Part shown: positions 7,874 through 25,700 of the stretch, piece by piece
How positions within the stretch are numbered: the first letter of the stretch is position 1
How the letters are laid out: each line of letters begins with the position of its first letter
Source: an uncultured Acidobacteriota bacterium
GTDB taxonomy: Bacteria > Acidobacteriota > UBA6911
NCBI GenBank assembly: GCA_963843575.1
Contig: CAWJKZ010000021.1
Location: 341,006-405,005, forward strand
Length of the DNA: 64,000 bases
Reading direction: 5' to 3'
The notes under the pieces: model-generated
What the model was told of the DNA's origin: nothing
Databases searched by the model: none
What the model saw: only the letters and a program-made list of their open reading frames with translations
Translations under genes and position numbers: made by a program

Positions 7874-7941
7874 CGGCTGAATACGAATGTCGTATGCTCA
7901 AATGCAGCGCTCGGCAACCATCGCAAACATCGGGGAATACT

Positions 7942-8403
7942 ATGCGATCCGAAAGGTACTTCGTGTGGTCGATTCTGATAGCGAGTCTGCTGTTCACCCT
8001 GGGGTGCCCGAAAGAACCCGCCCGTGTCAACATGGTCTTGGCCGCCGCCCCCAACGTCAACACCGACCCGGGGGGGCAGCCCCTGTCGGTGGTGGTGCGC
8101 ATCTACCAGCTGAAGGACAAGGGACGGCTGGAGACCGCGGACTACAACGCCATGTGGAAGTCGGACCGGGAGACGCTCTCCGATGATTTTCTCGACCGCC
8201 AGGAGCGGGTCGTGCAGCCCGGAACCCAGGAGATGATCGAGGTCAGGGCCAATCCGCTGGCCGCCTATCTCGGGGTAGTCGCCCTCTTCCGGAATCCTTC
8301 CGGCGACAGTTGGCGCAGGGTCGTTCCGATCAAGGGCAAAAATCAGAAGGTCACCTTCAGCCTGCGCGAGCAGAGTATCGAGCTGAGCTCTTCGGGAAAA
8401 TAG
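7942..8403 (+). CDS. tssJ: T6SS outer-membrane lipoprotein TssJ
   Basis: Lipobox TLGC; N.D..G.PLSVVVRIYQLKD; YLGVVALFR..WR. Confidence 0.92.
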   Translation: MRSERYFVWSILIASLLFTLGCPKEPARVNMVLAAAPNVNTDPGGQPLSVVVRIYQLKDKGRLETADYNAMWKSDRETLSDDFLDRQERVVQPGTQEMIEVRANPLAAYLGVVALFRNPSGDSWRRVVPIKGKNQKVTFSLREQSIELSSSGK

Positions 8404-8414
8404 GGACGGCAACG

Positions 8415-9767
8415 ATGACGCGCCTGGAAAAAGTGCTCTGGAGTGAGGGGTTGTTTCTTACCCCGCAGCATTTTCAGCAGTGGGACCGCTACTACGAGGA
8501 GTTCGTCAGCTTCCGGCTGCGCTCGCTGACGACATTCGCCTGGGGGGTCGAGGAGCTGGAGTTCAACGGGGAGGCGCTCCAGAACGGGGTGGTCGAACTG
8601 CTCCGCTGCCGGGCGGTGTTGCCCGACGGCATGCCGCTCAACATCCCCGAGACGGACCCCGCCCCCCCGAGCCGTAACTTCACGGCTGACTTTCAGCCGT
8701 CCAGCGAACGGCTGAGCGTCCATCTTGCCGTCCCCGCGCTGCGCGCGGGCGGGGCGAACCTGGGCGTCAACGGAGGCGGGCCCGCAGATTCGATGACGCG
8801 CTTCCGCATGACGTCGGCCTCGGTGACGGACGAGAACACCGGCGAAAACCCGCAGCCGGTCTCGCTGGCCACGAAGAACCTCCGGCTCCTGCTGGGCGAG
8901 GATGTCTCGGGGCACGGGTCGCTGAAGGTGGCCGAGCTGCGCCGCACCCCGGAGGGGAAGGTTGTGCTGGACGATTTCTTCATCCCGCCGGCCACCGCCC
9001 TGACGGCCTCGAAGTACCTGCTCGACATCGTGCGCCGCTTTTACGAGGTGCTGACGGCCAAGAGCGTGACCCTCTCGGACCAGCGGCGCCAGAAGGGCCC
9101 GGGGATGGCGGACTTCACCACTTCGGACGTCGCTAACTTCTGGCTGCTGCACACCGTCAACTCCTACCTGCCGGTCATGATGCACCTGCACCACGTCCAG
9201 AAGTTCCATCCGGAGCAGCTGTATCTCGCGATGGCGCGCCTCGCGGCGGAGCTGACGACCTTCGTCACGGACGCGAGCCCGGGCGACCTCCCGAAGTACT
9301 TCCACAGCGATCTCACCCGCACCTTCACGGAGCTCGACCGGCGGCTGCGCGTCCTGCTGGAGACGGTGATCCCGACCCGCTGCGTCCCCATACCGTTGGA
9401 GCGCACGAAGGAATCGCTCTATGTCGGGCGCATCCTGGACGACCGGCTGCTGACCCAGGCCGAGTTTTTCCTCGGGGTGTACGCGCGGATCCCCGAGACG
9501 CAGATCATCGAGCGCGTGCCGCGCAAGACCAAGATCGCTTCGCTCGACACGATCAACTATCTCCTCGGGCAGGCGCTGCCGGGCGTGTTGCTCCGCCCTG
9601 TCCCTATCGCCCCGGGGCCGATCCCGGCCCGCATGGGCTTCAAATACTTCCGCCTCGAGAAGCTCGGCACCTATTGGGACACCATCGCGGCCTCGCGCAG
9701 CGTCTGCATCTATTTCCCGGCCGAGTTTCCAGATCTCAAGCTGGAACTGTATGCCGTGAAGGATTGA
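8415..9767 (+). CDS. tssK: T6SS baseplate subunit TssK
   Basis: VLWSEGLFLTPQHFQQWD N-terminus, HPEQLY, LPGV.L, YFRL motifs. Confidence 0.95.
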   Translation: MTRLEKVLWSEGLFLTPQHFQQWDRYYEEFVSFRLRSLTTFAWGVEELEFNGEALQNGVVELLRCRAVLPDGMPLNIPETDPAPPSRNFTADFQPSSERLSVHLAVPALRAGGANLGVNGGGPADSMTRFRMTSASVTDENTGENPQPVSLATKNLRLLLGEDVSGHGSLKVAELRRTPEGKVVLDDFFIPPATALTASKYLLDIVRRFYEVLTAKSVTLSDQRRQKGPGMADFTTSDVANFWLLHTVNSYLPVMMHLHHVQKFHPEQLYLAMARLAAELTTFVTDASPGDLPKYFHSDLTRTFTELDRRLRVLLETVIPTRCVPIPLERTKESLYVGRILDDRLLTQAEFFLGVYARIPETQIIERVPRKTKIASLDTINYLLGQALPGVLLRPVPIAPGPIPARMGFKYFRLEKLGTYWDTIAASRSVCIYFPAEFPDLKLELYAVKD

Positions 9768-9776: not shown

Positions 9777-10496
9777 ATGCCTTCGTCACGGGACGATTTC
9801 GACAGCACGGATTTCGGCGCGGGGTCGGCCGGTTCAAAGAAGACCCTGGTGGATCTCTGCCGCGACGCTTTCCTCCTCATCTTTCACATCCGGGGGGGCA
9901 ACGACCCCGGGCACCCCGACGACTTGCGGAAGAGCATCGCCGCGCTGCTCCGGACGTTCGACGCCCAGGCGGCCAAATCGGGGTACAGCGAGGAGGATGC
10001 CAAGGCGAGTCGCTACGCCCTGTGCGCGCTCATCGACGAGACGATGCTCAACTCGAGGTGGTCGTTCAAGGACCAGTGGGCTGCGCGGCCGCTGCAGCTC
10101 GAGTATTTCGGGGAACAGCTGGCAGGGGAACGCTTCTTCGACCTGTTGGAGCGCGTCCGGCAGAAGGGGCGGAGGAAGGCCGATCTGCTCGAGGTCTTTT
10201 GCGTGGTGCTGATCCTCGGTTTCCAGGGCAAGTACAAGATGCGAGCCGGGGACGAGCTCGCGACCGTCACGCACGAGGTGGTGCAGGAGGTGCAGCAGTT
10301 CCGCGGCGGAGCCCCGGAACTGTCGCCGCATTGGCAGGTGCCCGAGGAGCATGTCGAAAAGCCCCCGCAGACAGTCCCGATGTGGGCGTGGGTTACCGGC
10401 ATCGCGGCCGTGGCGCTGGTCATCGTGGTTTACGTGGTGCTGAAGCTCTGGCTGGGTTCGGCAGCCTCCGACGCCGTCGGTCGGATGGTCCTGTGA
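9777..10496 (+). CDS. tssL: T6SS membrane subunit TssL (DotU family, short form without OmpA domain)
   Basis: YALCALIDE, W...PLQLEYF, GERFF, LGFQGKY, single C-terminal TM. Confidence 0.95.
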   Translation: MPSSRDDFDSTDFGAGSAGSKKTLVDLCRDAFLLIFHIRGGNDPGHPDDLRKSIAALLRTFDAQAAKSGYSEEDAKASRYALCALIDETMLNSRWSFKDQWAARPLQLEYFGEQLAGERFFDLLERVRQKGRRKADLLEVFCVVLILGFQGKYKMRAGDELATVTHEVVQEVQQFRGGAPELSPHWQVPEEHVEKPPQTVPMWAWVTGIAAVALVIVVYVVLKLWLGSAASDAVGRMVL

Positions 10497-10548: not shown

Positions 10549-13500
10549 ATGAACATATCGGCGTCAGGCCTGGCAACAAAAGTGGGGATCCCGGTCGCTC
10601 TGGCTGCGGCGGCGGTGTGGGCCGTCAACTCCTACGTCAGCCCGGACGCGGCCAAGAAGCTTCTTGCCATCATCCTGATTTTCGCGGCGGCGCTGCTGGT
10701 CGTGTGGCTCCTGGTGTGGCTGATCCGGGCCCTGGTGGTGTCGATGTCCGGGGCACGGTCGCGGGCCAGGGCCGCGCGCGAAGCGGCCCCGGCCGAAGGG
10801 GCAACCCCGCAGGAGCGGGCCGCCCTGGACGCGCTGCAGGGGAATATCGACGTCGCGTTGCGGGTCGTGCGCGAGTCCAAAATGGCTCGGGGCCGCAAAG
10901 GCGACGAGGCGCTGTACGCCTTCCCCTGGGTGGTCCTCTTCGGCCCGCCGGAATCGGGCAAGAGCACCCTCCTGCGTGACTCGGGCGTGGAGTTCCCGTA
11001 CAGCACGGCGGGCGAGGCCCGCAAATCGAAGCGCCCCGGCGTGGGAGCGGGCTGCGAATTCTGGTTCTCCCGCGACGCGGTTGTCCTCGACATGTCCGGG
11101 ACCCTCGGGACCGGGGATGACGAGTTCGAGGTGTTCAAGGGCTTCCTCGACCGCCTGAAACGAGCGCGGCGCGAGCGCCCCATCGACGGCATGGTCGTAA
11201 CGGTCCCGATCCGGGACATCCTGGACCAGGGCGCCGACCACGTCGAGGGGCTGGCAAACCGCCTCCGGCAGCGGGCGGACGAGATGACGCGGCGTTTCGG
11301 CATCCGCTTCCCCATCTATGTCCTTTTCACCAAGTGCGACCAAATCGACGGCTTCCCGGAGTTTTTCCGCAGTTTCCGGAGCCGCGACCGTGCCCAGGTT
11401 TGGGGCGCGACCATCTCCCGGGAGGCCCGCAAGCAGCTCCCCGTCGACGAGATCTTCCGGCAGGAGTTCGGGCGCATCGCCGAGTCGCTGCACGGCTATC
11501 GCCTCCAGGCGCTCGCGGCCGAGAAAGACCCGGGACGGCTCGCGCTCGTGTTCGCGTTTCCGGAGCGGTTCGCGGCGCTCGGCGCCAAGCTGGAGTCGTT
11601 CGTCGGCACCCTGTTCCAGGCGACCCCCTATTCGGAGAGGCCCATTTTCCGCGGGTTCTATCTGAGCAGCACCGGCGTTGCCGTCCCGGAGGCCAGGCCC
11701 GACGCGGAAGAGTTCCGCTGGGACGCCGCACGCCAGGCCGCCGCCCCGCAGCAGGAGCCGCAACGGGTCAAGAGCTATTTCCTGGAATCGCTCCTGCCCC
11801 GCGTCGTGTTCGCGGACCGTCCCCAGGTCAAGGCGTCCGTGGACACGCGCCTGCGCCGGCGGCTGTGGCTCGACGTCGCCTTCTTCGGGACGATCGCGGT
11901 GTGCACAGCGCTGCTGGTCGGGATGCTCTACTCGTTCAGCGAAAACCGCGGCCTGATCGAGTCGACGCGGCTGGCGGCCGTGCGCCTCACCGACGCCGGA
12001 TGGAACGGGCGGCGCGCGTCGGACCTGGCCGCACTGCAGCAGCTGCGCGAACGTCTCGACGAGCTGGACCGGTACCAGACCGAAGGGCCGAAATGGACGA
12101 TGCGGTGGGGGTTGTACTCGGGCGACCGGGTCGTGGAGGCCGCACGCCGCGTGTACTTCCGTCGCCTGCGCACCTCCTTCCTCCTGCCGACGGCCGACAC
12201 CCTGCGGCAGAAGCTCAACGCCTATGCCTCGGCTCAGCCCGGAGCGGTCAATTACAGCGAGTTTCACTCCTTCCTGCAGGCCTACCTGATGATGACCGAG
12301 CCGCCGCGGTCGCAGGAATCGTTCCTGCGCACCACGCTGGCGCCGGTGTGGAAGGCGCTCGGGCCCCCCGAGGCCGAGCCCGTGGTGCTGGACCAGCTGC
12401 GCTTCTACGCGCAGCAGTTGCCCAAGAACGACGCCGACCTGCAGCTGACCCGCGACAACGAGGTGGTCGCCCGGGCGCGCCGCGCGCTCGGCCAGTTCCC
12501 GGCGCTCGATCGGCTCTACATGCGCCTGAAGACGGAGGGGAACGCCAAGTACCCGCCGTACACCCTGGCGCAGGCCACCGGGGGGAAGAGCCTGGAATAC
12601 CTGAACTCCAGCCACGACGTCCCCGGGGTGTTCACCGAGGCCGGCTGGACGGGGTACTTCAAGCAGGCCATCGCGCAGGCGGGCAAGGAGATGGTCCAGG
12701 ACGACTGGGTCGTCGGGCCGACCTATAGCGGTGCGGTTCGTTCGACCGACGCCGACTCGGAACGGCAGATCCGGGACAAGTACTTCACCGAATACGTCGA
12801 GGAGTGGCAGAAGTTCCTGGAGGGTGTCTCGGTGCGGCCCCTGGCGGACCTGAACGAGGCCCGCTCGGCCCTGGACTCGTTCTCGCAGCAGGACTCCGCA
12901 GTGTCGCGCCTCCTGATGAATGTGGCCGCCAACACCATGCTGCGCCGGGAGCCGGAGAAAGGCAACAGCATCACCTCGATGGTTTCGAGCACCCTGGCCA
13001 CACTCGGGCTCTCGACCCGCGTGAACCGCGCCGAGCTGATCGATGCGGTGGCCGACCAGTTTCAGGCACTGCACGACGTCGTCACGTCGCCTGACGGCGG
13101 CAAGACCCCTTCGATGCTGGCAGGGTATATCCTCGCGCTGAGCAAGGTGCACGCGCGGCTCGAGGCGCTGTTCGGAGCCGGCACCCAGTGGGAGCAGGTC
13201 AAGGCCTACGTCGACATGATTGCGAACAACCTCTCCAGCAACGAGTTCCAGGAGGGTTACCGAATCACCGCGCTGATCAACAAGCAGTGCCGCACCCGCA
13301 GCACCCAGCCGGTCGGACCGATGCTGGAGCAGCCGCTGCGGCAGACCTGGGCGGCGATCCTGCGCGAAGTCGGCTTCCGGCTGGACGGATTGTGGAAGAC
13401 GCAGGTGGCGGAACTCTACCGGCGGGACATCGAGAGCAGCTACCCGTTCAACCTCTCGGGGCAGGACCTCCCGCTGGCCACCCTGTCGCAGTTCTTGAAG

Positions 13501-14133
13501 CCGCGCGAGGGGAGCCTCGACGCGTTTTACGAAAAAGAACTCAAGATGTTCCTCACCCCATCGGGCAGCGCGTTCGCGCCGCGCACGCTGTTCAACGCCG
13601 AGGTGGCATTCTCCCCGCAGTTCCTGGAGTTCCTGGAGAAGACGAACGCGATCCGCCAGGCGCTTTATCCTCCCGGGGCGCCCGACATGAGCGCCACCTT
13701 CGACCTGACCCCGGACGCGACACCGGGCGTCACCGAAAGCCTGCTGGAGATCGACACACAGAAGTTGCTTTACAGAAACGAGCGACCCGTCCCCTCCGTG
13801 GTGACCTGGCCGGGGAAGGGGGGATCTCCCCAGGCAAAGCTGAGCATCTCGCTGACCGGCTCGGGGGAACGGCCGGGCATTCCGGCGATCGAAGGCGAGT
13901 GGGCCCTCTTCAGGCTGCTGGCGCAGGCCCGGGTCGTGCCGCTCTCTCAAACTGCCTACAGCGTCAGCTGGTCGCTGCCGAGCGCCGACGGGAGGAAGCT
14001 CGAGGTGCGCTACAAACTCCAGGCGCGGAGCTACCGAAACCCATTTCCCCCGAACTTCTTCCGCGTGGTGAGCTGTCCTGAGACCGTTACGCAGCAGTCG
14101 TCGGCCGCCGCGGGACTGTCGCCGGCGCGCTGA
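10549..14133 (+). CDS. tssM: T6SS membrane subunit TssM (IcmF)
   Basis: N-terminal TMs, YAFPW..GPPESGKS P-loop, RPIDG, FPIYVLFTKCD, FRGFYLSS, YPF, C-terminal GEWALFRL. Confidence 0.95.
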   Translation: MNISASGLATKVGIPVALAAAAVWAVNSYVSPDAAKKLLAIILIFAAALLVVWLLVWLIRALVVSMSGARSRARAAREAAPAEGATPQERAALDALQGNIDVALRVVRESKMARGRKGDEALYAFPWVVLFGPPESGKSTLLRDSGVEFPYSTAGEARKSKRPGVGAGCEFWFSRDAVVLDMSGTLGTGDDEFEVFKGFLDRLKRARRERPIDGMVVTVPIRDILDQGADHVEGLANRLRQRADEMTRRFGIRFPIYVLFTKCDQIDGFPEFFRSFRSRDRAQVWGATISREARKQLPVDEIFRQEFGRIAESLHGYRLQALAAEKDPGRLALVFAFPERFAALGAKLESFVGTLFQATPYSERPIFRGFYLSSTGVAVPEARPDAEEFRWDAARQAAAPQQEPQRVKSYFLESLLPRVVFADRPQVKASVDTRLRRRLWLDVAFFGTIAVCTALLVGMLYSFSENRGLIESTRLAAVRLTDAGWNGRRASDLAALQQLRERLDELDRYQTEGPKWTMRWGLYSGDRVVEAARRVYFRRLRTSFLLPTADTLRQKLNAYASAQPGAVNYSEFHSFLQAYLMMTEPPRSQESFLRTTLAPVWKALGPPEAEPVVLDQLRFYAQQLPKNDADLQLTRDNEVVARARRALGQFPALDRLYMRLKTEGNAKYPPYTLAQATGGKSLEYLNSSHDVPGVFTEAGWTGYFKQAIAQAGKEMVQDDWVVGPTYSGAVRSTDADSERQIRDKYFTEYVEEWQKFLEGVSVRPLADLNEARSALDSFSQQDSAVSRLLMNVAANTMLRREPEKGNSITSMVSSTLATLGLSTRVNRAELIDAVADQFQALHDVVTSPDGGKTPSMLAGYILALSKVHARLEALFGAGTQWEQVKAYVDMIANNLSSNEFQEGYRITALINKQCRTRSTQPVGPMLEQPLRQTWAAILREVGFRLDGLWKTQVAELYRRDIESSYPFNLSGQDLPLATLSQFLKPREGSLDAFYEKELKMFLTPSGSAFAPRTLFNAEVAFSPQFLEFLEKTNAIRQALYPPGAPDMSATFDLTPDATPGVTESLLEIDTQKLLYRNERPVPSVVTWPGKGGSPQAKLSISLTGSGERPGIPAIEGEWALFRLLAQARVVPLSQTAYSVSWSLPSADGRKLEVRYKLQARSYRNPFPPNFFRVVSCPETVTQQSSAAAGLSPAR

Positions 14134-14148
14134 CAAGGAGCAGAGACG

Positions 14149-15615
14149 ATGGACACCCTACTGGAACAGCTCCAGGCTAAAGCGGCGGGGCACCCCCCCT
14201 CGCTTCCACTCAAGCTGCTGGTCGTTGCCGACTGCGCCGGGGATGCGACGCAACCGGCCGTCCGAATCCAGCAGGGGCTCGACGGGCTGTTTCAGAGCCT
14301 CCGCCCCACCGTGCGGCTGAGCGTTGAGAACCGGCTCCAGCCGGGAGCCCCGAAGCTGGCGCTCGAGCTGCAGTTCCGCTGCCTGAGCGATTTCCACCCC
14401 GAGTCGGTGGTCGGCCGCACGGCGGTCCTGTCCGAGGCGCGGCAGGCGGGCCATCCCGCCCTGGCGGAACAGCTCGACCTGGTGCTTCACCACCCCGAGT
14501 TCCAGCGCGTGGAAGCGGCCTGGCGCGGCCTGGCGCGGCTCTGCCGTGAACTCGAGGACAAGCCCGGCGTGATCGCGGAGGTGCTCACGACAGGCCGGAA
14601 GGATCTTGCAGGGACGTTCCACGGCCGGGTTTTCGAACCGGAGTACCGGGGAGAGGCCGGGCCGCCCCTGTCGGCGGTGCTGTTCGATTTCCGGTTCAGC
14701 CACGAGCCCGCCGACCTGCCCCTGCTCGAGGCGCTCGCTGCCGATTGCGCCGCCCTGGAAGCCCCCATGATCGCAGCCACCTCGCCCGCGTTTTTCCAGC
14801 TGAAAAACCTTGCCCATCTCCCCAGCCTGCCGGAACTCGGGCCGCGGATGCAGCAGCCCGCCTATGCCGGTTGGCGCCGCTTCCAGACCGACGCGGCGTC
14901 CCGCTGGGTGTGCCTGACCGCCAACCGCTTTCTGGCGCGCGAGAGCTACGCCCTGAGCCGCGAAGCCGGGGACGCTCTCGACTACCGCGAAAAGGCCGAT
15001 GCCGCCCACCCCGAAAACTACGTGTGGGCGGAGGCCGGGTGGCTCATCCTGTGCAACCTCGCCCGCAGCTTCTCGAAATACCGCCACTGCGTGGTCATCG
15101 ACGGGATGAGCCCAGACACCGCCCACGACAACCTTCCGGTACGCCCTTTCCCAAAAAAGGCGAACGTGGAGGTGCCGAGCCCGACCGAGATTCTCCTGGA
15201 CGACACCAAGGCGTGGGAGATCGTCCGGGCGGGCATCACTATCCTGCTCGGGATCAGCGACGGGGCAGTGGCGAGTTTTCCACTGGTGGCCAACGCTTAC
15301 CGGCTGAAACCCGGAGTTGTCACGGTCGAGTCGGCGCTGTCCTACCAATTGTTCGCCGGGAACCTGTTCCACTATCTGGTTGCCCTCTACCCTGAATTCC
15401 CCGCCGAGGGCGCCGAGGCGGTAGCTGCTTTCGTGCGTTCCCACCTCGAGGAGTTTCTCGTGCCGTTTGTGGGCGACCAGCCTGGGGAGTCTGTCCGCGC
15501 CGAGCTCGTCGAAGCTGCCGGCGAGACTGCCGGCCGGACGTTGCAGGTCACGCTCCGGCCGCAGCTCAAGATGCAGGGGAAAGACGTGGACTTCGCGCTC
15601 AGCATCGCGCTCTGA
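14149..15615 (+). CDS. single-chain TssB-TssC sheath-like fusion protein 1 (short form)
   Basis: TssB core (LPLKLLVVAD..., VENRL, DFHPESVV) joined directly to TssC motifs (QLDLVLHHPEFQRVEAAWRGL, RFLARESY, PTEILL, LSYQLF). Confidence 0.85.
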   Translation: MDTLLEQLQAKAAGHPPSLPLKLLVVADCAGDATQPAVRIQQGLDGLFQSLRPTVRLSVENRLQPGAPKLALELQFRCLSDFHPESVVGRTAVLSEARQAGHPALAEQLDLVLHHPEFQRVEAAWRGLARLCRELEDKPGVIAEVLTTGRKDLAGTFHGRVFEPEYRGEAGPPLSAVLFDFRFSHEPADLPLLEALAADCAALEAPMIAATSPAFFQLKNLAHLPSLPELGPRMQQPAYAGWRRFQTDAASRWVCLTANRFLARESYALSREAGDALDYREKADAAHPENYVWAEAGWLILCNLARSFSKYRHCVVIDGMSPDTAHDNLPVRPFPKKANVEVPSPTEILLDDTKAWEIVRAGITILLGISDGAVASFPLVANAYRLKPGVVTVESALSYQLFAGNLFHYLVALYPEFPAEGAEAVAAFVRSHLEEFLVPFVGDQPGESVRAELVEAAGETAGRTLQVTLRPQLKMQGKDVDFALSIAL

Positions 15616-15623
15616 GAGGCCCC

Positions 15624-17435
15624 ATGGTCAAGAACGCCAGAGACAGGATCCGGTTCGGCGGTGAGGCGCCGTCGGAGTCGTCGTCGCCGCCGCTGCGACT
15701 GCTCGCCATCGCCGATCTCTCCTGCGCCGGCGACGGCGTCGCCCGGCGGGTGCGCGTGGACAAGGACTCGTTCAACGAGGTGCTCCGGACGGTGTGTCCC
15801 CGGATTGCCATCCAGCTTCGGTCGCGGTCTCCCTCGGGTTCCCCAGTGGAAGCCGAGTTCCCGATCCAGGACCTGAAATCCTTCGCCCCCGCGCAGCTCG
15901 CCGGCGCGCCCCTGTTCCGCGACCTGGTCAGCGACAGGGCCGCGGCAGTCGATCTGCGGGACGGCCGGATCCGGCCGGAGGAGTTCAAACACCGGGTTCA
16001 ATCCGACGTCTTGCGCGACGCCCTTGCGGGGCTGATGCACGAACCGTCCGCGCCGCCGGCCGTGGAAAAAACCCCCGAGCCGCAGCGCCGCACGGACCCC
16101 CGGAAGGACGACATCCTCGATTCGATTCTCGGCATGGTCGAGGCCCCCGCTGCCGCGGGGGCGGCAGAGCCGACAACCGACGGGGCTGCCCGCGTCCAGG
16201 CCTTCATCTCCGACATGTTCAAAGGTGGGCGTCCTGGCGGCGGAGTGGACCGCGGGAAGGCCGACCGGATGGTGAAGGACATCGAGGGCATGCTGGTCTC
16301 CCGGATGAACGAAGTGCTCAACCACCCCGAGTTCCGGCGGTTGGAGTCGGCCTGGCGCGGCCTGAAGTTCCTGGTGGACCGCACCGACTTCCGCGACGCG
16401 ATCGAACTCGACGTCGTTTCCGCGCCCAAAGGGGAATTGGTGCGGGTCATGGAAGCCGCGTTGACCGATCTGGACGCCGGCGCTGCCGGGGTGGACGCGG
16501 TGCTGGCGGCCTTCGAGTTCCGCAACACTCCCGAAGATCTGGACGTCGCAAGACGCGCGGCGGAGCGCGCCGCGGAGCTCAGGGCTCCGGTCGTGATCTC
16601 CGTTGGTGCGTCGTTCTTCGGACAGGAGAGTGCGGCGGAGGTGACGCGCATCCCTCACCTGCGCGCGCACCTCGACACCCCCGGGTTCGTAAAGTGGGAC
16701 TCCTTCCGCGGCGTCGAGAGTTCACGATGGCTCGGCGCGGCGTTCAACCGGTTCCTCCTGCGGAACCGTTACGAGCCTGCGTCGGCCCGGGTGGCGTTCC
16801 CATTTCACGAGGCCGGCGACGGTCTGTGGGGCGACCCCGTCTGGGCGATAGGATCGCTGCTGGTGCGCAGTTTTTCACGCACCGGCTGGTGCGGGCACAT
16901 CACCGGAGTGCGCGGGGGCGGGGTCCTCGAGGACTTGCCCGTGCGGGATTTTGCGCTGCCGTCGGGGGACGTGCGGCAGATCCCGCTCGAGTCGGTGTTT
17001 CTGCGTGGCAGGGAAGACGATTTCTACGCCGCCGGTTTCGCGGCGCTGCAGTGCGGTGAGGACCAGGACGTCGCCGCCCTGTTGGCTGCGCCGACGACGC
17101 ACCGGCCCGAACAGTACCCCGACGCGCGCGAGAGCGAGAGCAGCCGTCAGCGCGCCCAGTTGTCCTACCAGCTGGTCGCCGGCCGGATCGCCCGCTTCGT
17201 GGAGCGGGAACTCGCGCAGCTGGGCGGGTCGGCTGCGGCGGAAATCCAGACGGGGCTCGCCGCCGCGCTGAAGCGATTGATGGGGCAGGCGAGTCCGGAT
17301 TCCGTGCAGGTCCGCCTCTCGGAAAGTCAGGAAAGGGTCGGCTACCACGACCTCGCGGTTGACATCCGCCCGGGCCCGTCGATCTGGCCTTTCTCGACGG
17401 CGATTCAACTGAAGATTCCGCTGCGCAGGAACTGA
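15624..17435 (+). CDS. single-chain TssB-TssC sheath-like fusion protein 2 (long form)
   Basis: TssB motifs (PLRLLAIADL, VDKDSFNEVL, LKSFAP) followed by TssC motifs (ILDSIL, VLNHPEFRRLESAWRGLKFLVDRTDFR, GGGVLEDLP, QLSYQL). Confidence 0.88.
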   Translation: MVKNARDRIRFGGEAPSESSSPPLRLLAIADLSCAGDGVARRVRVDKDSFNEVLRTVCPRIAIQLRSRSPSGSPVEAEFPIQDLKSFAPAQLAGAPLFRDLVSDRAAAVDLRDGRIRPEEFKHRVQSDVLRDALAGLMHEPSAPPAVEKTPEPQRRTDPRKDDILDSILGMVEAPAAAGAAEPTTDGAARVQAFISDMFKGGRPGGGVDRGKADRMVKDIEGMLVSRMNEVLNHPEFRRLESAWRGLKFLVDRTDFRDAIELDVVSAPKGELVRVMEAALTDLDAGAAGVDAVLAAFEFRNTPEDLDVARRAAERAAELRAPVVISVGASFFGQESAAEVTRIPHLRAHLDTPGFVKWDSFRGVESSRWLGAAFNRFLLRNRYEPASARVAFPFHEAGDGLWGDPVWAIGSLLVRSFSRTGWCGHITGVRGGGVLEDLPVRDFALPSGDVRQIPLESVFLRGREDDFYAAGFAALQCGEDQDVAALLAAPTTHRPEQYPDARESESSRQRAQLSYQLVAGRIARFVERELAQLGGSAAAEIQTGLAAALKRLMGQASPDSVQVRLSESQERVGYHDLAVDIRPGPSIWPFSTAIQLKIPLRRN

Positions 17436-17589: not shown

Positions 17590-19938
17590 ATGGCGACGAC
17601 AGCCCGAAGGTTGGGGCTGGAAGCTGATTTCTTCTTCCAGGCCGGTTCCTATTCGGAGAAGGATCTTCGTGTGGTCCGGTTTGAGGGGACGGAGTCGCTC
17701 TCGGAACTATTCCGGTTCCAGCTGCAGCTTGCGTTGGAGGATGTCGAGGCCGATTTCGAATCCATCCTTGGCAAACCGGCACGACTCAAGATCATGGGGC
17801 GTGAAGGGACGCGGTACGTCAACGGCATTATAAGCTGGTTTGAACAGGCCGGCGAACCGACGCGGCTGACGCAGTACAGCGCGGAACTCGTGCCGAGAAT
17901 CTGGCTGCTCCATCACCGTCACAACTCGCGAATCTTTCAGGAGATGACGGTTAAGGACATCATCGACAAGGTGCTGAAAGACGCGAAGATCCCGCCCGAC
18001 GAATTCGAATTCCAGTTGCGCAAGACGTATCCGACGCGCGAGTACTGCGTACAGTACCGGGAATCGGATTTTGCGTTCATATCCAGGCTCATGGAAGAGG
18101 AGGGAATTTACTACTGGTTCGAGCACACGGAGAAGAAGCACGTCCTGACGATGAGCGACGCGTTCTCCATCCACGTCCCCATCGAGGGGAACGCGGGGCT
18201 GGTGCTGCATGAAGTGACAGGCGAAGAGCCCGACTTCGAGCACATCTACCACTTTCGCTACACGGAAGAGGTGAGGCCCGGGGAAGTTGTCCTCCGCGAT
18301 TTCGACTTCAAGAAGCCGTCCTTGGATCTGACGGCCAACAAGGCCGCAGATGTTCGTAAAGAGCTCGAGATTTATGACTACCCGGGCGAATACGTCCAGC
18401 CGGCCGTAGGCAAAGATCTCAGCGAGGTGCGGCTTCAGGAAGCGCAGACTCCGCGGAAGGTCGGTCAGGGCAGAACAAACTGCCGCCGCATGCTCCCCGG
18501 GCGCAAGTTCACCTTGGACAAACACAACCGGACGGCGTTGAACCAGGAATACCTGATCACGCGCGTGCTGCACACCGGGGCGCAGGTTCAGACGTTCAAA
18601 GAAGCGGCCGGCACGTCGAAGGGCAACGAGTACAACGCGGAGTTTTCGTGCATCCCGGCGAAGGTCCAGTTCCGGCCGGCGCGGGTTACGCCGCGCCCTG
18701 TCGTGCACGGCTCGCAAACCGCGATCGTGACCGGTCCCGCGGGGGAAGAAATCTACCCGGACGAGCACGGGCGCGTGAAGGTGCAGTTTCACTGGGACCG
18801 CGAGGGCAAGAAAGACGAAAAGACCTCCTGCTGGATCCGGGTGAGCCAGAACTGGGCCGGTCCCAGCTGGGGGGCGATGATTATTCCTCGGATCGGCCAC
18901 GAGGTGATAGTGGACTTCCTGGAAGGCGATCCTGACCAGCCGATCATCACCGGTCGCGTCTACAACGGCGCAAACCGGCCTCCCTACCCGCTTCCGGGCG
19001 AAAAGACCAAAAGCACCTGGAAGTCGAACAGCTCAAAGGGGGGCGGTGGTTCAAACGAACTCCGGTATGAGGACAGCAAAGGGTCGGAGGAGATCTACCT
19101 TCACGGGCAAAAGGACTGGAACATCGTCATCGAGAACGACAAGACCCAGAAGATCGGCCACGACGAAAGCCTCGACGTCGGCCACGACCGCAGCAAGCAT
19201 GTGGGGAACGACCAGTCCGAAAAAGTCGACAACAACAAGAGCATCACGGTCGGGGTCAACCACACGGAGAAAATCGGGTCCAATAAGGACCTTACGGTCG
19301 GCGCCAATCACACGGAGAAGATCGGCGCCAACATGTCAGTTACGGTCGGCTCAAACTTGACGGAGAACGTTGCCCTGAATTATTCGGAAACCGTCGGTAT
19401 CGCTATGGAGCTGACAATAGGCGCGGCCATGACCCATACGGTCGGCGCAGCGCTCATGCAGAGTGTGGGCGCCAACATGTCCCAGAGCATCGGGGTTTCG
19501 AAATCGATCAATATTGGATCGAACCTGACTCAATCGGTGGGCGCAAATTCAAAGGAGCAGATCGGGAGCAACAAGTCCACGAAGGTCGCCAGTAACGACA
19601 CCATTTCAGTCGGTGGAGACCAAAAGCTCGATGTCAGTGGCAAGCGAAGCACCTCGATCGGAAAAGAGGACTCACTGAAGGTTGGGACGAAGCTCACCAT
19701 CGACGCTGGAGATCAGATCGTACTTCAGACGGGCAGTTCCAGCATAACCATGAAGAAGGATGGCACAATCAACATCAAAGGCATGAAGATTACGATTGAA
19801 GGTACTCAAAAGATCGAGGAGAAGGCAGCCCAGATCAGTTCCGAGGCCCAGACGAAGAACGAGATGAAGGGCGCGATGGTGACAGTCGAGGCCTCTGGCA
19901 TCAACACAATCAAGGGCGCCCTGGTGAAGATCAACTGA
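17590..19938 (+). CDS. vgrG: T6SS spike protein VgrG (no evolved effector extension)
   Basis: REYCVQYRESD, DEHGRVKVQFHWDR, IPRIGHEV.V.F..GDPD.P, gp5-like C-terminal repeats. Confidence 0.97.
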   Translation: MATTARRLGLEADFFFQAGSYSEKDLRVVRFEGTESLSELFRFQLQLALEDVEADFESILGKPARLKIMGREGTRYVNGIISWFEQAGEPTRLTQYSAELVPRIWLLHHRHNSRIFQEMTVKDIIDKVLKDAKIPPDEFEFQLRKTYPTREYCVQYRESDFAFISRLMEEEGIYYWFEHTEKKHVLTMSDAFSIHVPIEGNAGLVLHEVTGEEPDFEHIYHFRYTEEVRPGEVVLRDFDFKKPSLDLTANKAADVRKELEIYDYPGEYVQPAVGKDLSEVRLQEAQTPRKVGQGRTNCRRMLPGRKFTLDKHNRTALNQEYLITRVLHTGAQVQTFKEAAGTSKGNEYNAEFSCIPAKVQFRPARVTPRPVVHGSQTAIVTGPAGEEIYPDEHGRVKVQFHWDREGKKDEKTSCWIRVSQNWAGPSWGAMIIPRIGHEVIVDFLEGDPDQPIITGRVYNGANRPPYPLPGEKTKSTWKSNSSKGGGGSNELRYEDSKGSEEIYLHGQKDWNIVIENDKTQKIGHDESLDVGHDRSKHVGNDQSEKVDNNKSITVGVNHTEKIGSNKDLTVGANHTEKIGANMSVTVGSNLTENVALNYSETVGIAMELTIGAAMTHTVGAALMQSVGANMSQSIGVSKSINIGSNLTQSVGANSKEQIGSNKSTKVASNDTISVGGDQKLDVSGKRSTSIGKEDSLKVGTKLTIDAGDQIVLQTGSSSITMKKDGTINIKGMKITIEGTQKIEEKAAQISSEAQTKNEMKGAMVTVEASGINTIKGALVKIN

Positions 19939-20319
19939 GTGGACGAACAACCCTGGTCGACATGGTTTCGGTTCACTTTAGCAGCGTTTGCGACTTGGAG
20001 ATTGTCGTTGCTCTTTGCACGCGACGATGGGCCATGGGAGCTATTTGCACGTATCCGGAAATTTGCAAGCCGAGTTGCGCTCGGTCGGGCTGTCGGCTGC
20101 GTCAAGTGCATGAGTATATGGTTTGCTATGCCGCTTGCGTTTTTTGTCGGCGGCAGCCTCATACAAATGGTTGTGGTATGGCTTGGCCTTTCAGGGGTAG
20201 CAGCCCTGATCGATGAGTCGACTCGGCCGCCATTCGAGTGGAAGGAAGACCCAAAGAATGAGTTGCTGCGGGGAAACCCGGACCGCACCGCTGACAGAGC
20301 GGCACCGGATGAAGATTAG
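19939..20319 (+). CDS. DUF1360-like small membrane protein
   Basis: ATWRLSLL...DGP and CxxC-x-x-x-W (CVKCMSIW) pattern with TM helices; abuts the vgrG stop. Confidence 0.6.
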   Translation: MDEQPWSTWFRFTLAAFATWRLSLLFARDDGPWELFARIRKFASRVALGRAVGCVKCMSIWFAMPLAFFVGGSLIQMVVVWLGLSGVAALIDESTRPPFEWKEDPKNELLRGNPDRTADRAAPDED

Positions 20320-20521
20320 CTACTCCGGTGGCCGTCCCATTGAGGTGATCGGCCCCGTTACGGGTACGAAATATCGTTTTTCCGGGATGGCCAGGATTGG
20401 TCTGGTGGATCCGCGGGATGCGGTAATGATGGTGCGGAACCGCAGATTCAGAGTCGAGGGGATCGTGGAGCTACCGCCTGGGGCGGACACAGCTTCAGGG
20501 AGGAGGGAGACACATGGGTAA
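20258..20521 (+). CDS. small hypothetical protein with MSCCG N-terminus
   Basis: ATG at 20258 with GGAAGG upstream; overlaps both neighbours; GPVTG..YRF..VDPRDA segment. Confidence 0.55.
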   Translation: MSCCGETRTAPLTERHRMKISYSGGRPIEVIGPVTGTKYRFSGMARIGLVDPRDAVMMVRNRRFRVEGIVELPPGADTASGRRETHG

Positions 20522-20888
20522 GCCGGCAGCAAGACTGGGCGACTCAACCATGCATGGTTCACCGTTGCTGGGTGCGGCGTGCATGACAGTGCTCATCGGC
20601 GGCAAGCCCGCATGGCGCATTACCGATCAGCACACCTGTCCAATCCCAAATGCTCCGCCTCCGGCTTGTACTGGTACGCCCCATGGTCCGGGAATCACCA
20701 CGCCCGTTCCGGACGGCGGTTCGGGGATCGTCTTGATTGGGGGAAAGCCGGCCGCTCGGGTCGGAGACATCGTCATGGAGCCCGGCGCTCTCCTTCCGCT
20801 GCCGCCCCCCAACAACATCGTCGTCGGCGAGTTCACGGTGCTGATCGGGATGGGCGGCGGTGGCGGGTGCCCCGCGGGCGCAACCTGA
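20514..20888 (+). CDS. PAAR spike-tip protein
   Basis: KPAARLGD, KPAWRITD and KPAARVGD repeats with His/Cys zinc-ligand candidates; strong GGAGG RBS. Confidence 0.93.
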   Translation: MGKPAARLGDSTMHGSPLLGAACMTVLIGGKPAWRITDQHTCPIPNAPPPACTGTPHGPGITTPVPDGGSGIVLIGGKPAARVGDIVMEPGALLPLPPPNNIVVGEFTVLIGMGGGGGCPAGAT

Positions 20889-21345
20889 ACGTGACGAAAA
20901 GCTCCGGTCGGAGCTACGCTTTCTCTCAAGCTGGAGTGCGCATCGTCTAGTGGAACCTTGGCGGCTGGCGTGCGGTTTTATGACAAGGAGAAAAATTCAC
21001 CGGGATTTCAACGAATTTCTTGCCCGGTACGCGGATTGGGACGCCGCGCGCGGGACCGACCTGGAGCCGAAGAACCGGAGAGGGCGTTCCCGACGTGAGT
21101 TCTGCGACCGGGAAGATGAATGACGCGCCAACAGACATCGCGGCCGGTCTAAGGGATTGCGTTCTATGGAGGCTGCGCCGGACGGCATAACCTTTTTGAT
21201 TTCAAATGGATTGGAAAGGGTGGGGGGGGTATAGGATTAGGTGGAGAAGTTCGATCAGACAGATCTCCGGGTGATCGTTTAGATTAGTCCCGAGTCGCGA
21301 ATTCACTCTCGCGCGCCGTATTCGAGCCGTAGGGGTTGCTCTCCT

Positions 21346-22347
21346 ATGAGTGACTCCGGCTTTACATCCCTGTCCGGCGCGCTATTGCCAGAAAGGATTT
21401 CTATGGCTGAGGACCAGAGACGTGCCGGCCAAGCGCGGGTGAACGCCGAAGAGTTGAGGCCTGGCGTGGATCTTTCCAAGCGCTGGCTTGAGGGAGCCGA
21501 CCTCTCTCGCCGCGATCTTGCTGAAGCCAATCTGTCGGGAGCGAACCTCCGAAATGCCAACCTGTGCAGCGCTGTCCTCGCTGGTGCCATTCTCACCGAG
21601 ATCTCGGCTGAAGGAGCGGTAATGCGCGAAATCTCGCTAGAGAATGCCGAACTCAGCGATGCACTCCTCGTATCCTGCGACCTGACAGGGGCGAATCTCA
21701 AGGGGGCTAATTTGGCCAAGGCCAATCTGACGCGCGCGAAGCTAACCCGCGCCAATCTGACTGGAGCCAATCTCTCGACTGCCAAACTGGCGGAGGCTGA
21801 CCTGACTGGGGCTGTTCTTACGAGTGTAGATCTGTCTTCTGCGACGGCACCGGGGGCCATTCTGAGGGACGTCATCATGGAGGGATCGAATGCCAGGATG
21901 GCAGACTTTTCGGAGTGCGATTTCAGCCGAGCCAAGGTCCGGAAAGCCAGTTTCGAGCGGGCTGCGCTAACGAGGGCAACATTTGACCAGACCGCTGCAG
22001 AAGGCGCTGTGTTCGAATTCGCTGATCTGCGAGGTGCGACAGTCAAGAAGGCCGAATTCGCACAGGCCAGCTTGGTCGGAGCGACTTTGTCTGGTGCCCG
22101 GGCGTTCGACTGTGATTTCCGCGAGACGGATTTCTACTGGGCTGAGATGGAAGGCTTCGAGATGGTGCGGTGCAACACCGAGGGCGCAAGGGTCCCGGAG
22201 AAGGTCGAGATCAAGTACGGCCCTCGGGGCGTGAAGCCACCCGAGGTTAAGCCGGTTCCCTTGTATCGAACCGCCGCGACTGCAGAGGAGAGGAAGAGAC
22301 TGGTCGAGGCGGCTCTCAGGGCTGAATCCTCGCAAGGCAAGGAATAG
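21346..22347 (+). CDS. pentapeptide-repeat protein (TagB-like T6SS accessory)
   Basis: Long run of A(N/D)Lxx repeats; the start may instead be the second Met (MAEDQ). Confidence 0.88.
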   Translation: MSDSGFTSLSGALLPERISMAEDQRRAGQARVNAEELRPGVDLSKRWLEGADLSRRDLAEANLSGANLRNANLCSAVLAGAILTEISAEGAVMREISLENAELSDALLVSCDLTGANLKGANLAKANLTRAKLTRANLTGANLSTAKLAEADLTGAVLTSVDLSSATAPGAILRDVIMEGSNARMADFSECDFSRAKVRKASFERAALTRATFDQTAAEGAVFEFADLRGATVKKAEFAQASLVGATLSGARAFDCDFRETDFYWAEMEGFEMVRCNTEGARVPEKVEIKYGPRGVKPPEVKPVPLYRTAATAEERKRLVEAALRAESSQGKE

Positions 22348-22424
22348 GTAGCACGAGAACGTGGCGCCGGCGATTCCGGCGGCCGGGTAATTTCGGGCAT
22401 TCGAAAGACGCTTCAAGTGTCTCT

Positions 22425-22631
22425 ATGCGCGTAGTCAACGGAACCCCATATCCTGTGGATACAGTGCTCTGGGAAGATCTCCAGGGACACTCCAAACTGA
22501 CAGTTATCGTCAAGGCTACGTTCGAGATTGGAAAGGGTAAGATGGCGGCAGCCGACAAGCAGCTCCCTGTCTTCGCTGCTGACCAGCACTACCGAGATGA
22601 TCCCACCGCTTCTATGCGATCAGAAGGGTAA
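22425..22631 (+). pseudogene. truncated DUF2169 adaptor (first 68 aa only)
   Basis: Aligns with the N-terminus of 27205-28290 (WEDLQ, VIVK.TF, PVF.ADQ.YRDD); no continuation in any frame. Confidence 0.85.
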
Positions 22632-22737
22632 ACTCTACGAGGACAGGGCGTGGAAGAGCTGTCGCGAGGCGGCGAAACGTCGGCCCAGAAAACCGTGATA
22701 CCCAGCAGCGGCGCTGGCCGGCATTAATGGTACTGAC

Positions 22738-25700
22738 ATGTGCGACGTCAACATTGCCACCGGTCAAGTTACGCAGTTCCAGATCGACGTGCTCCTATCG
22801 GGAAGGATTCCCTGGCGTCTGACCCGTCGCTACTCGAGCGAGAACCCCAAGCGCGGTGTAGTCGGCTATGGCTGGACGTTGAACCTTGGCACGTTCCTTC
22901 GATGTGGACCCGAACAGATCCAGATGCTGGTTGACGGCGAGCCGTCTTCGCAGTTCCCGCCGATCGCCGTCGGCCACTTGCGCCCGCTGGACGACTCTGG
23001 AGTTGCGGTGGCCCGAACGGACGCAGGCATCTCCGTGACGGACCGCGTTGGCACGACATTCGTTTTTCCGTGTGGCGAGCCGCTGCCGAACCTAGTCCCC
23101 TGCGTGAGGCGATACGATCACTATCGTAACTTCATCGAGTACCGCTACGACGGCGACGCACGGCTTCGGACGCTGACCGACACGTTCAATCGGCAGATAG
23201 TCTTCGCATACGACGGGCGCTCGCGGCTGGTCGAGGTGTTTGCCGCGTTCGGGTCGACCCACTGGTCTCTTGTCCGTTATGAGTACGACAAGGACGACGA
23301 TTTGGTCGCCGTCATCGACCCCGGCGGGAATCCCACTCGATACGAGTACTCATCACATCTGCTCACGCGTGTGACTGATCCCACCGGTCGCGATCTCTAC
23401 TACCAGTACGATCGCGACAAGAAATGCGTACGGACCTGGTTTACTGGCGGGGTGTGGGATCGGCAGCTGTCCCACGATCCGCTTCGGCGGCGCGTTCTCG
23501 TCACTCATCCGGACGGATACTCGAAGCTCTTCAGCCACGACGGCAAGGGCACCGTAACCGGCGACGTCGATCCCCTGGGTCGGGTGCGCGAAGATGTGGT
23601 GGACCACAACGGGAAGATCCTTCTGCGTGCTGGCGCGATACCGACGGTCATCCGCCGCGACCCTGGTTCGAACATCGTGCTGATGTCTCGGAATGGGCTG
23701 GAAACCTTTGCTGAGGTCGACGCGAACGATCAGGTGACGCTGCTCAGAAAGCACGATGGCAGTGTCTGGAAGTACGAATATGACGCCGCCGGCAACCCGA
23801 CACGTTCGGAGGCGCCAGACGGCGCGGTGTGGAAGTTCGACTACAACGAACACGGTGACCTAGTCCGTTTCGTTGACCCTACCGGTTATGAACGACATCG
23901 CGAACGCGCTGCTGACCGGCTCGTCCTGCGCGATGCGTGGGGCCTTCGCCAAGACGAGCGATTCGATCGCCTTGGCCGGACGACCCAGGTTATCGATGGA
24001 GAGGGCGGCGAGGTCCGCTTCCGCTACGACGCGTCCGGAAGACCGCTCCAACGCATCAACCCTGACGGAACATCGACATCGGTCGAGTATGACGCCGCTG
24101 GCCGTCCCACTCTTCTGACAGACGAACTCGGTAAGCAACTGCGATTGATGAGGGATCCCACGAACACGTGGGTCAAGGTCTTCCGTTCCGATGGACACCA
24201 GGAAGTCTACGAGTACGGCCTGAGCGACGAACTGAGAAGGATTACAAATTCAGCGCGCGAAACAGCCGAGCTCTGGTACGACGCCGCGGGCCGATGTACG
24301 CGCGTCCGCTATTTCGACGGACGACAACACGCGATCGACTATGACGACGCGGACAATCCAATCGCGCTGCGAGATGGTCGAACGGGCACGGTGCTGGCCA
24401 CGTGCAAGTACGCCGACGACAAACTCGTCGAGGAGCTGTATTACGACGGGCGCCACTTGAAGATAGAGTACGGCCCGGCTGGGGAAGTGGTTTCGGTCGA
24501 GAACGACGACGCGACGCTGTCGTATGAGCGCGATGCGTTGATGCGTATCGTAAGGGCGCGTCAGAACAACCTGGAGCTGAACTACGGCTACAACCTCAGG
24601 GGGGATCGCACGTCTCTGACGACGAACAGGGGTCGTCGAATCGAGTACGTCTGGGACGGTCGCGGTCGACTCGTCAGGATGGTCGACACTGCGGCCGGAA
24701 CGTACGAGTATTCGTACGACGGCCGGGACCTAGTGACCGGGATCCGGATGCCCAATGGGTGCGTCCAGTCTATCAAGTACGACCGACGACAGCGGATGAT
24801 CTCGCGCCGCGTGACACGCGTCGATGGTTCCGAGATCTGCTCTCGAGAGTTCTCGTACGACCAACGATCACGACTGATCCGATACCTGGATAGCGTGCGA
24901 GGGACGCGAAGCTACACGTACGACGCATCGGATTTCCTGACGTCGGCCAGCGATGACGGAGGCATCGTCCGGTTTCAGCACGACTCGAACGGCAACCTGC
25001 TGGCGACACGGAACGGGGATCCGGTCGCATACGCCCGCGGGGATCGCCCGACGCGCGTCGGCCCGGATGAAATCGGCTACGACGAGCGAGGCAACCTGGT
25101 CCTGTGGCGGTCTAGCAGCGGCGAATCTCGTTTCGAGTACACGGGCGAGAGCTGGCTCAAACGCGCGCGGCTCGCTGCCGGCACCGTGGCGGAATACGAA
25201 TACGATGGGCTCGCACGCCGGACCGCGAAGACGGTTGATGGGCAGCGCACCGAGTTCGACTGGGATGGTGTCTGTGTGCTGAGCGAGCGCACCGAGACCG
25301 AGGCGATCGAATACCTGTTCATGCCCGGCTCCTTCTTCGTAGCAGGGGTCACGCGGGGCGGGCGACACTATTCCTACGTGCTCGACCAGCAGGGAGCGCC
25401 CACTGAGCTGATAGACGATGCCGGCGAGATCGTGTGGGCGGCTGATTACGCCCCGCACGGCGAAGTCACGGCCGTTCGAGTCGCCAAGGTCGCCCAGCCC
25501 TTTCGCTTCCTCGGTCAGTACTACGACGACGAACTGACGTGGCACTACAACCGGTTTCGGTACTACCACCCGCTACTCGGCCGGTTTACGAGCCCTGACC
25601 CGCTGTGCTTTGCGGCGGGCATCAACCTGTATCGGTACGCACCGAATCCCGTGAATTGGGTCGATCCCTTGGGGCTGTCGGTGGCGACGCCCGGCGCCGG

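Follow-up and report, generated by a model that had tools for sequence, protein, structure and literature searches.

A conserved pair of single-chain TssB-TssC sheath paralogues in the type VI secretion cluster of an uncultured Acidobacteriota bacterium

In a stretch of 64,000 nucleotides from an uncultured Acidobacteriota bacterium (GTDB lineage UBA6911; assembly GCA_963843575.1, contig CAWJKZ010000021.1, positions 341,006 to 405,005 of the forward strand), hereafter called the window and numbered from its first letter, two adjacent genes of a type VI secretion system (T6SS) cluster each encode, in one polypeptide, counterparts of both subunits of the contractile sheath, TssB and TssC. The two products, here named F1 and F2, are genuine single-chain TssB-TssC proteins with a full sheath fold, its C-terminal domain included as far as profile alignments and models indicate, and the pair that they form is a conserved unit. 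They are best explained as an old, co-inherited pair serving the one T6SS of the genome together with TssB/TssC, and not in the place of TssB/TssC. The textbook T6SS sheath is a uniform polymer of a single TssB/TssC heterodimer and, to our knowledge, several sheath paralogues in fixed layers are known only from phage-like particles such as the Photorhabdus virulence cassette (PVC) and the antifeeding prophage (AFP). The two genes belong to a family of single-chain TssB-TssC proteins that is large, conserved and without a name, represented in this lineage by a fixed pair of complementary types beside the normal sheath, and this pair suggests that T6SS assembly or control has a layer not yet studied.

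Domain composition of F1 and F2

The two genes lie on the + strand, where the order runs tssJ-K-L-M-F1-F2-vgrG:

14149-15615, + strand: F1, single-chain TssB-TssC sheath paralogue of 488 aa, stripped type (open reading frame and Pfam)
15624-17435, + strand: F2, single-chain TssB-TssC sheath paralogue of 603 aa, complete type (open reading frame and Pfam)

An earlier note, made from the letters of the window only, had already read these two open reading frames (ORFs) between tssM and vgrG as TssB-TssC fusions set apart from a canonical tssB/tssC pair at 39108-41131, and both readings are borne out, the former by the frames, Pfam and the profile-profile aligner hhalign, the latter by Pfam and by a likely true tssB start ('MAKEGS') at 41131. 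The hidden Markov model scan that it had proposed finds VipA (PF05591) and VipB (PF05943) on one chain in both proteins. In F1, VipA covers residues 18-94 (38.7 bits, cut-off 24; profile positions 25-110 of 155) and VipB residues 104-372 (180.7 bits, cut-off 27); in F2, the corresponding matches extend over residues 41-131 (24.3 bits, cut-off 24) and 214-493 (186.5 bits, cut-off 27). When compared with the window's own TssB by hhalign, the F1 and F2 families align with probabilities of 95.7% and 99.3%, respectively. A VipA-like N-terminus, the absence of which the earlier note had named as fatal to its reading, is therefore present in both. The motifs it had listed as common to the two are less evenly distributed: LPLK.LV..D and DF.PESV occur in F1 only, VDKD.FNEV and EDLP in F2 only, and F2 has LN and not LH before F.R.E.AWRGL.

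Neither protein reaches the NCBIfam equivalog cut-offs, be it for TssB (TIGR03358, 97.25 bits; F1 35.2, F2 20.7 bits) or TssC (TIGR03355, 271.5 bits; F1 184, F2 215.2 bits), so that both are to be considered as relatives of the canonical subunits and not as copies; identity to the window's own TssC is 28-30%. No phage-type sheath family was matched by F1 or F2 in Pfam at E up to 1, where VipA, VipB and a chance P53_C match were the only ones recovered. Each protein is encoded by one open frame, unlike the canonical heterodimer with its two separate chains that stabilise one another, and the same holds in all orthologous loci. The parts of the two chains are distributed as follows:

14149-14190, + strand: F1 N-terminal conserved amphipathic helix, residues 1-14 (conserved in 22/23 alignment rows; modelled as a helix over 4-12)
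14191-14439, + strand: F1 TssB-like part, residues 15-97 (hhalign to residues 48-137 of the window's own TssB ORF)
14431-15612, + strand: F1 TssC-like part, residues 95-488, with the predicted gp25-like domain at its C-terminus (hhalign to canonical TssC 67-487 of 494, probability 100%)
15642-15662, + strand: F2 'R-x-R-I-x-F-G' motif, residues 7-13, candidate inter-subunit linker strand (conserved in close F2 orthologues)
15666-16025, + strand: F2 TssB-like part, residues 15-134 (hhalign to residues 45-179 of the window's own TssB ORF)
16095-16148, + strand: F2 linker helix, residues 158-175, 'DDILDSILGMVE' (matched in the alignment to the TssC region of the N-terminal ClpV-binding helix)
16179-17432, + strand: F2 TssC-like part, residues 186-603, with the predicted gp25-like domain at its C-terminus (the hhalign match reaches TssC residue 488 of 494)

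F1 is the stripped type. As judged by hhalign, it is devoid of the N-terminal linker strand, of the C-terminal helices of TssB and of TssC residues 1-66; the amphipathic helix stands in the place of the linker strand, and the other members of the F1-type clade start directly at a PL(K/R)hLV strand, likewise without linker strand. With an alignment that begins only at TssC residue 67, no segment of F1 matches the ClpV-binding helix of TssC. The outer recycling domain (Domain 3) is missing, and the inner and middle domains as well as the C-terminal linker region are kept. The AlphaFold 2 model of F1 has a mean predicted local distance difference test score (pLDDT) of 72; its residues 91-478 superpose on VipB 62-478 with a Z of about 20, and residues from about 17 to 478 on single-chain sheaths of phages, pyocins and extracellular contractile injection systems (eCIS) with a Z of 15-18. 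The N-terminal helix of F1 was also considered as a displaced handle for ClpV, its 'LLEQLQAKAA' being slightly like 'LIEQILDQTK' of TssC, and this candidate was rejected as the helix is missing in distant F1-type proteins. As a separate observation, residues 329-385 (window 15133-15303) are the most conserved stretch of the F1 family, with many invariant or almost invariant positions in succession, and yet the one that AlphaFold models worst (pLDDT <50); they may be an interface that is ordered only in the assembly.

F2 is the complete type. Its N-terminal R-x-R-I-x-F-G motif resembles 'RERINIVYK' of TssB and is modelled with low confidence; from this likeness, a role as linker may be proposed. 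The C-terminal helices of TssB are kept. The linker helix, with a family consensus of 'DxLDxILxMVExP' and a modelled helix over 163-169, aligns with TssC's N-terminal helix and is a putative equivalent of the ClpV-binding helix; the hhalign alignment of the F2 family to TssC begins at TssC residue 15 and extends over 15-488 of 494 with a probability of 100%. The AlphaFold 2 model (mean pLDDT 85) superposes over 209-591 on TssC chains with a Z of 33-36 (VipB 61-477, Z about 35) and from about residue 20 to 591 on single-chain phage, pyocin and eCIS sheaths with a Z of 20-25.

Conservation, pairing and origin

The F1 relatives come from Acidobacteriota metagenome bins, are mostly of 488-494 aa and 59-65% identical, and both Pfam domains are found in 33 of the 36 matches; those of F2 make up a wider set (42-66% identity), with VipA and VipB on one chain in at least 66 among the 120 matches listed. 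At source, these proteins bear no label other than 'contractile sheath large subunit' or 'ImpC', and present annotation hides the single-chain TssB-TssC family. In a profile search, 939 representatives (clusters at 50% identity) were recovered at or below 1e-30, and among the 150 best of them, 124 have a profile match beginning at position 48 or before. Among 300 other genomes of the phylum sample, a search with F1 gave 30 matches at E ≤1e-20 and no orthologue of the 60% type; the fused forms in that sample are distant ones only, in genomes G294, G264 and possibly G256.

A tree was built from 404 columns of the TssC-like region and 144 sequences, namely 117 of the 150 best profile-search representatives (the other 33 were left out for a length outside 430-700 aa), 12 added orthologues, 12 canonical TssC and the 3 window proteins. 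F1- and F2-type proteins are united there in a superclade of 88 tips with a support of 1.0 and no canonical TssC inside, within which the F1-type clade (25 tips) also has a support of 1.0. This topology would fit a single TssB-TssC fusion and a later duplication that gave a short and a long type. Some 30 other fused representatives fall outside the superclade with weak support (0.43-0.49), for which reason no single origin is claimed for all fusions. On the fringe of the family, a whole single-chain sheath protomer is joined in P0210 to a TIR domain and in P0224 to WD40 repeats, and two entries with two VipA and two VipB stretches each (P0190 and P0179) look like merged gene calls.

The pairing of the two types is recurrent. 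In five close loci (L016-L020), the order tssJ-K-L-M-F1-F2 is kept as far as the contigs reach; the order tssJ-K-L-M upstream of F1 is seen in L016, L017, L019 and L036; the distant locus L021 has an F1-like gene and then an F2-like gene, so that F1 is followed by F2 in 6/6 of L016-L021. On metagenome contigs, an F1-type gene was found in 19 of 20 loci and F2 directly after it in 15 of these 19; three of the loci without F2 (L040, L044 and L052) have just 352, 504 and 108 bases downstream. Upstream, tssM precedes F1 in six of the seven close metagenome loci, the seventh having 108 bases on that side. In genome G294, an F1-like gene is followed by a protein with a very weak VipB match. Besides, unfused extra TssC-like genes (24-33% identity to the window TssC) occur in or beside the cluster in L033 (14547-15821), L027 (4932-6032, - strand) and L053 (161-1261, - strand), as a different solution to a second sheath paralogue.

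In the genomes looked at, the pair accompanies the canonical sheath. Phyletic co-occurrence was among the checks proposed in the earlier note; the pair and TssB/TssC coexist in 6/6 genomes including that of the window, a canonical TssC being present in each of the five other genomes with the pair (439-451 bits or, in G301, split over three frames). Within the whole genome of the window, which is 88% complete, VipB-type matches number three and are all inside the window, which indicates one T6SS with three sheath-like gene sets. As for G301, the genome of the closest relative, canonical tssC (C12:706449-707354) runs over three reading frames with one in-frame TGA, with F1 and F2 intact; this corresponds either to an assembly error or to a broken main sheath gene.

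Both genes are under clear constraint, somewhat looser than that on core genes. Against the closest relative, L016 (87% amino-acid identity for F1 and 83% for F2), the ratio of nonsynonymous to synonymous substitution rates (dN/dS) is 0.153 for F1 and 0.231 for F2, as compared with 0.061-0.107 for TssK, TssL, TssM and VgrG. Independent assemblies, at 29-86% identity, keep the frames at unchanged length and no disrupted orthologue was seen, so that the decay which the earlier note had named as an outcome contrary to its proposal is not what the orthologues display. The G+C content at third codon positions (0.84 for F1, 0.85 for F2) is like that of the neighbouring genes. The junctions are tight, with 15 bases between tssM and F1 and 8 bases between F1 and F2, each ATG is preceded by GGAG or GAGG, and no terminator-like site was found on the + strand over 14133-17435. 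These tight junctions to tssM would fit a co-transcription and, to that extent, the co-expression with the membrane complex suggested in the earlier note; the link is not general, since distant pairs are found among housekeeping genes. In the metatranscriptome run X13, the coverage consists of one 218-base contig within F2 (17155-17372) and a 35-base piece in tssM, which, with best word shares of at most 0.19, is too little to claim transcription.

Proposed place of the pair in the secretion machine

The literature on the sheath of Vibrio cholerae, as far as covered by the portions of the papers cited here, indicates which features a bulk subunit cannot do without. The VipB variant K223A does not assemble sheaths; with D333A, sheaths assemble and do not contract; lengthening the N-terminal linker of VipA (N-linker) by two residues stops contraction, its exact length being critical; and subunits with an altered N-linker or D333A co-assemble with the wild type and are dominant negative (PMC5797969). 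Each sheath subunit sends both of its linkers to the ring nearer the baseplate, TssE being proposed to take those of the first ring, and for the VipA-N3 mutant a ring held at the baseplate end by six arms instead of twelve is described (PMC5813253). As for recycling, ClpV binds TssC's N-terminal helix, within the first 60 residues (PMC5048182).

The equivalents of K223 and D333 were located through a phmmer alignment to chain 5mxn_A and then MAFFT columns, with a numbering offset of +16, the sole offset in 0-19 that places both a K and a D and one that agrees with the residue numbers of the structural alignments. At the K223 equivalent, a Lys is present in 20/20 canonical TssC, in 39/39 of the F2 family and in 1/23 of the F1 family. 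The D333 equivalent is Asp or Glu in 20/20 canonical TssC and Asp in 23/23 of the F1 family; in the F2 family it is acidic in 15/39 and basic in 17/39, the F2 of the window having Arg461 there. These substitutions argue that neither protein would be a bulk sheath subunit, because each carries a change blocking bulk sheath function in V. cholerae VipA/VipB, F1 being without N-linker and K223 equivalent and F2 without the conserved D333 equivalent. In other words, F1 and F2 may be natural versions of the mutations engineered to lock Vibrio sheaths, which makes testable how sheath ends start, stop or escape ClpV.

As each of the two would spoil a bulk sheath, they are expected in few copies at a defined place or in a control role. 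Except at an end, the chain of linkers is interrupted by any ring without N-linkers, which would put an F1 ring at the end of the sheath. The reading we favour, held tentatively and a little short of an even chance, is that F1 and F2 make up specialised rings at an end of the sheath, the one adjoining the baseplate being the most likely, by analogy with Pvc4 of PVC. The suggestion of minor, specialised sheath layers made in the earlier note is in keeping with the sequence features, neither protein looking like a bulk subunit. On this basis, F1 and F2 would be low in copy number and confined to one or two special rings at the sheath end; F1 would be attached in the direction of the baseplate through its C-terminal arm alone, with six arms per ring instead of twelve, and be invisible to ClpV by the usual route; F2, which may carry the handle for ClpV, would bridge the F1 ring to the TssB/TssC sheath. 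A bolder version, which we consider decidedly improbable, is a three-protomer sheath in which the ClpV-blind F1 ring remains attached to the baseplate once the machine has fired, as a permanent seed, and the F2 ring adapts it to the recyclable TssB/TssC. If true, it would allow repeated firing from the same baseplate without new nucleation and amount to a built-in initiator layer that the T6SS was thought to lack, widespread across phyla.

The analogy comes from eCIS particles. The roles of Afp2, Afp3 and Afp4 match those of Pvc2, Pvc3 and Pvc4. The single-chain eCIS precedent invoked in the earlier note exists in the latter set, where several single-chain sheath paralogues serve in one machine and one is reserved for the layer on a gp25-like adaptor: Pvc4 is the sheath initiator and the layers of Pvc2 and Pvc3, two alternating paralogues, come next (according to the part of PMC12546770 drawn on here). 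PVC and AFP sheath chains can be superposed on almost the full length of the F1 and F2 models (Z 16-23); beyond the fold, no sequence kinship is detectable (5-12% identity in the structural alignments), F1 and F2 being derived from TssB and TssC and not from the phage-type sheath family. With canonical TssB/TssC (VipA/VipB; PDB 3J9G, 5MXN, 5URW and 5N8N), F1 and F2 share the fold, the order of parts and the location in a T6SS cluster, whereas they are of one chain instead of two and in a separate clade (support 1.0). The duplicated tssC of Agrobacterium is reportedly unfused. TssC40 of Agrobacterium tumefaciens, beside TssC41, is an extra TssC-like paralogue in a T6SS cluster, as F1 and F2 are, with one extra gene instead of a pair; in the portion of the report referred to, the two TssC homologues are non-redundant for Hcp secretion (PMC3702570), so that a second homologue of TssC can be indispensable. 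A search of the open-access literature, supplements not covered, found no natural TssB-TssC fusion and only engineered tags or unrelated uses; the gene list in the supplement of a survey could still name such fusions. Likewise, a term search in the accessible part of a 2026 review of T6SS accessory factors found no mention of fused or paralogous sheath genes (PMC13584744).

Several points weigh against the reading as end rings, or against parts of its foundation. Incorporation of F1 and F2 into the sheath, copy number, position and order are what we infer; a presence in the sheath would be a prediction from sequence and models, and the argument for the position is one of logic and analogy, the same data also fitting a regulatory, non-structural role. 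The K223/D333 mapping depends on the +16 offset, which is deduced, and on MAFFT columns. The VipA match of F2 exceeds the Pfam cut-off by just 0.3 bits, a doubt that the profile-profile comparison with the window's own TssB removes. The C-terminal gpW/gp25-like domain of both proteins is recognised by hhalign and the models only, Pfam VipB_2 (PF18945) giving no match in F1 or F2 at E up to 1; the relatives P0163 and P0174 have weak VipB_2 matches. The F1 model is poor (pLDDT <50) over residues 317-393, and the dN/dS of F1 and F2 is 1.5 to 4 times that of neighbouring core genes. With respect to pairing, L042 has an F1-type gene with 1478 bases downstream and no F2 match therein, and G264 has an F2-like gene without F1-like neighbour. 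In distant loci at 29-36% identity (L034, L048, L050 and others), no T6SS gene was found within the flanks, where the neighbours are housekeeping genes, and the operon link to tssM consequently holds for close orthologues only.

That F1 and F2 would be soluble or transiently bound regulators, i.e. sheath mimics tuning when or how often the T6SS fires, is in our estimation rather unlikely, and comes next in probability after the end rings. Such proteins could cap growing sheaths, hold the machine extended as a brake or occupy ClpV. The dominant block of firing by V. cholerae subunits with an altered N-linker or D333A (PMC5797969, as far as drawn on here) speaks for it, as F1 has no N-linker and F2 no conserved D333 equivalent; F2 also keeps a helix aligning with the one that ClpV binds (PMC5048182, with the same restriction), the cluster contains a post-translational control module of FHA and kinase type, and the F1-F2 pair can lie far from structural genes. 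A pure decoy for ClpV would nonetheless have no need of the complete inner domain and C-terminal linker region that both proteins retain, F1 is without any ClpV-helix region, and two distinct types paired across deep branches are more easily understood through a defined structural arrangement. Besides, an end ring could at the same time be a brake.

Another possibility, which appears improbable, is that F1 and F2 together make a second heteromeric sheath of alternating layers, on the same baseplate and tube, that replaces TssB/TssC under some conditions. The whole sheath fold present in both, their constant pairing and their complementary losses, F1 keeping the D333 and F2 the K223 equivalent, would speak for it, since a mixed lattice could supply both contacts, and PVC sheaths do alternate two paralogues (PMC12546770, in the part drawn on). 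Yet half of the layers would then be unlinked on the side of the N-linker, absent from F1 and of critical length in V. cholerae (PMC5797969, likewise in part), F1 would not be recyclable by ClpV via the usual helix, none of the five genomes with the pair lacked canonical TssC (0/5), and no second hcp, tssE or clpV lies beside the pair in detached loci. That the fusions would be decaying duplicates, or artefacts of assembly or gene calling by read-through from tssB to tssC, is scarcely credible. Very long entries such as P0179 and P0190 do have the look of merged gene calls, and the tssC of G301 split over three frames indicates that assembly errors occur in such genomes; same-length frames in independent assemblies (29-86% identity), dN/dS of 0.15 and 0.23 and a fused clade apart from canonical TssC with a support of 1.0 are against it, and in F1 the VipA match ends at 94 and VipB starts at 104, which leaves no space in which a stop and a start could have been lost. 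To the extent that sequence can decide, length conservation, dN/dS and clade support refute decay and artefact alike.

Other genes of the cluster

The window contains one complete type VI secretion cluster, the canonical tssB/tssC pair being 22 kb away from F1 and F2. Downstream of vgrG, the + strand continues with a PAAR protein and then a Rhs-repeat protein. The other features are as follows:

7870-8403, + strand: tssJ (Pfam; upstream of F1)
8310-9767, + strand: tssK (Pfam; upstream of F1)
9777-10496, + strand: tssL (Pfam; upstream of F1)
10549-14133, + strand: tssM (Pfam; directly upstream of F1)
17590-19938, + strand: vgrG (Pfam Phage_GPD, Gp5_trimer_C and Phage_base_V; separated by 154 bases from F2 upstream)
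32955-36368, - strand: clpV ORF (Pfam)
32955-39050, - strand: block of clpV, tssG, tssF and tssE (Pfam)
38643-39050, - strand: tssE (Pfam)
39108-40595, - strand: canonical tssC (Pfam VipB 443.6 bits and VipB_2 154.8 bits)
40634-41200, - strand: canonical tssB ORF (Pfam VipA 194.3 bits)
41158-42732, - strand: tssA, with ImpA_N and VasJ (Pfam; TIGR03362 325.8 bits, cut-off 230.1)
48523-49029, - strand: hcp (tssD; TIGR03344 149.2 bits, cut-off 58.9)

Counted from its first GTG, the clpV ORF has 1137 aa and overlaps tssG by 667 bases; since the matches to its relatives do not begin before about residue 221-229, the true start probably lies some 220 codons further in. At the far end of the cluster (43856-48430, + strand), a protein combining two FHA domains with an SLT lytic transglycosylase domain at its C-terminus comes first and a Ser/Thr kinase that bears a PEGA domain next; the two make up a control module of the phosphorylation type. 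Between tssA and the FHA-SLT gene, u382 (42872-44020, - strand) encodes a 381-aa protein without Pfam or NCBIfam family, for which an atlas search yielded only leads below 0.9. A homologue at 36% identity (L032, 8274-9101) adjoins the lone F2-like gene of genome G264, and u382 may be functionally tied to the fused sheath proteins.

Directly 3' of vgrG, an ORF of 126 aa (19939-20319, + strand), 80% conserved in L016 and without NCBIfam family, may correspond to a VgrG-linked adaptor or a small membrane protein. Over 18001-32000, the G+C content is 0.57-0.62, against 0.62-0.69 elsewhere in the window; this region takes in a portion of vgrG, the genes for the PAAR, pentapeptide-repeat and Rhs-repeat proteins and some 6 kb further, and looks like a variable effector island. 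In the L016 counterparts, the Rhs protein is 31% identical, as against 93% for VgrG.

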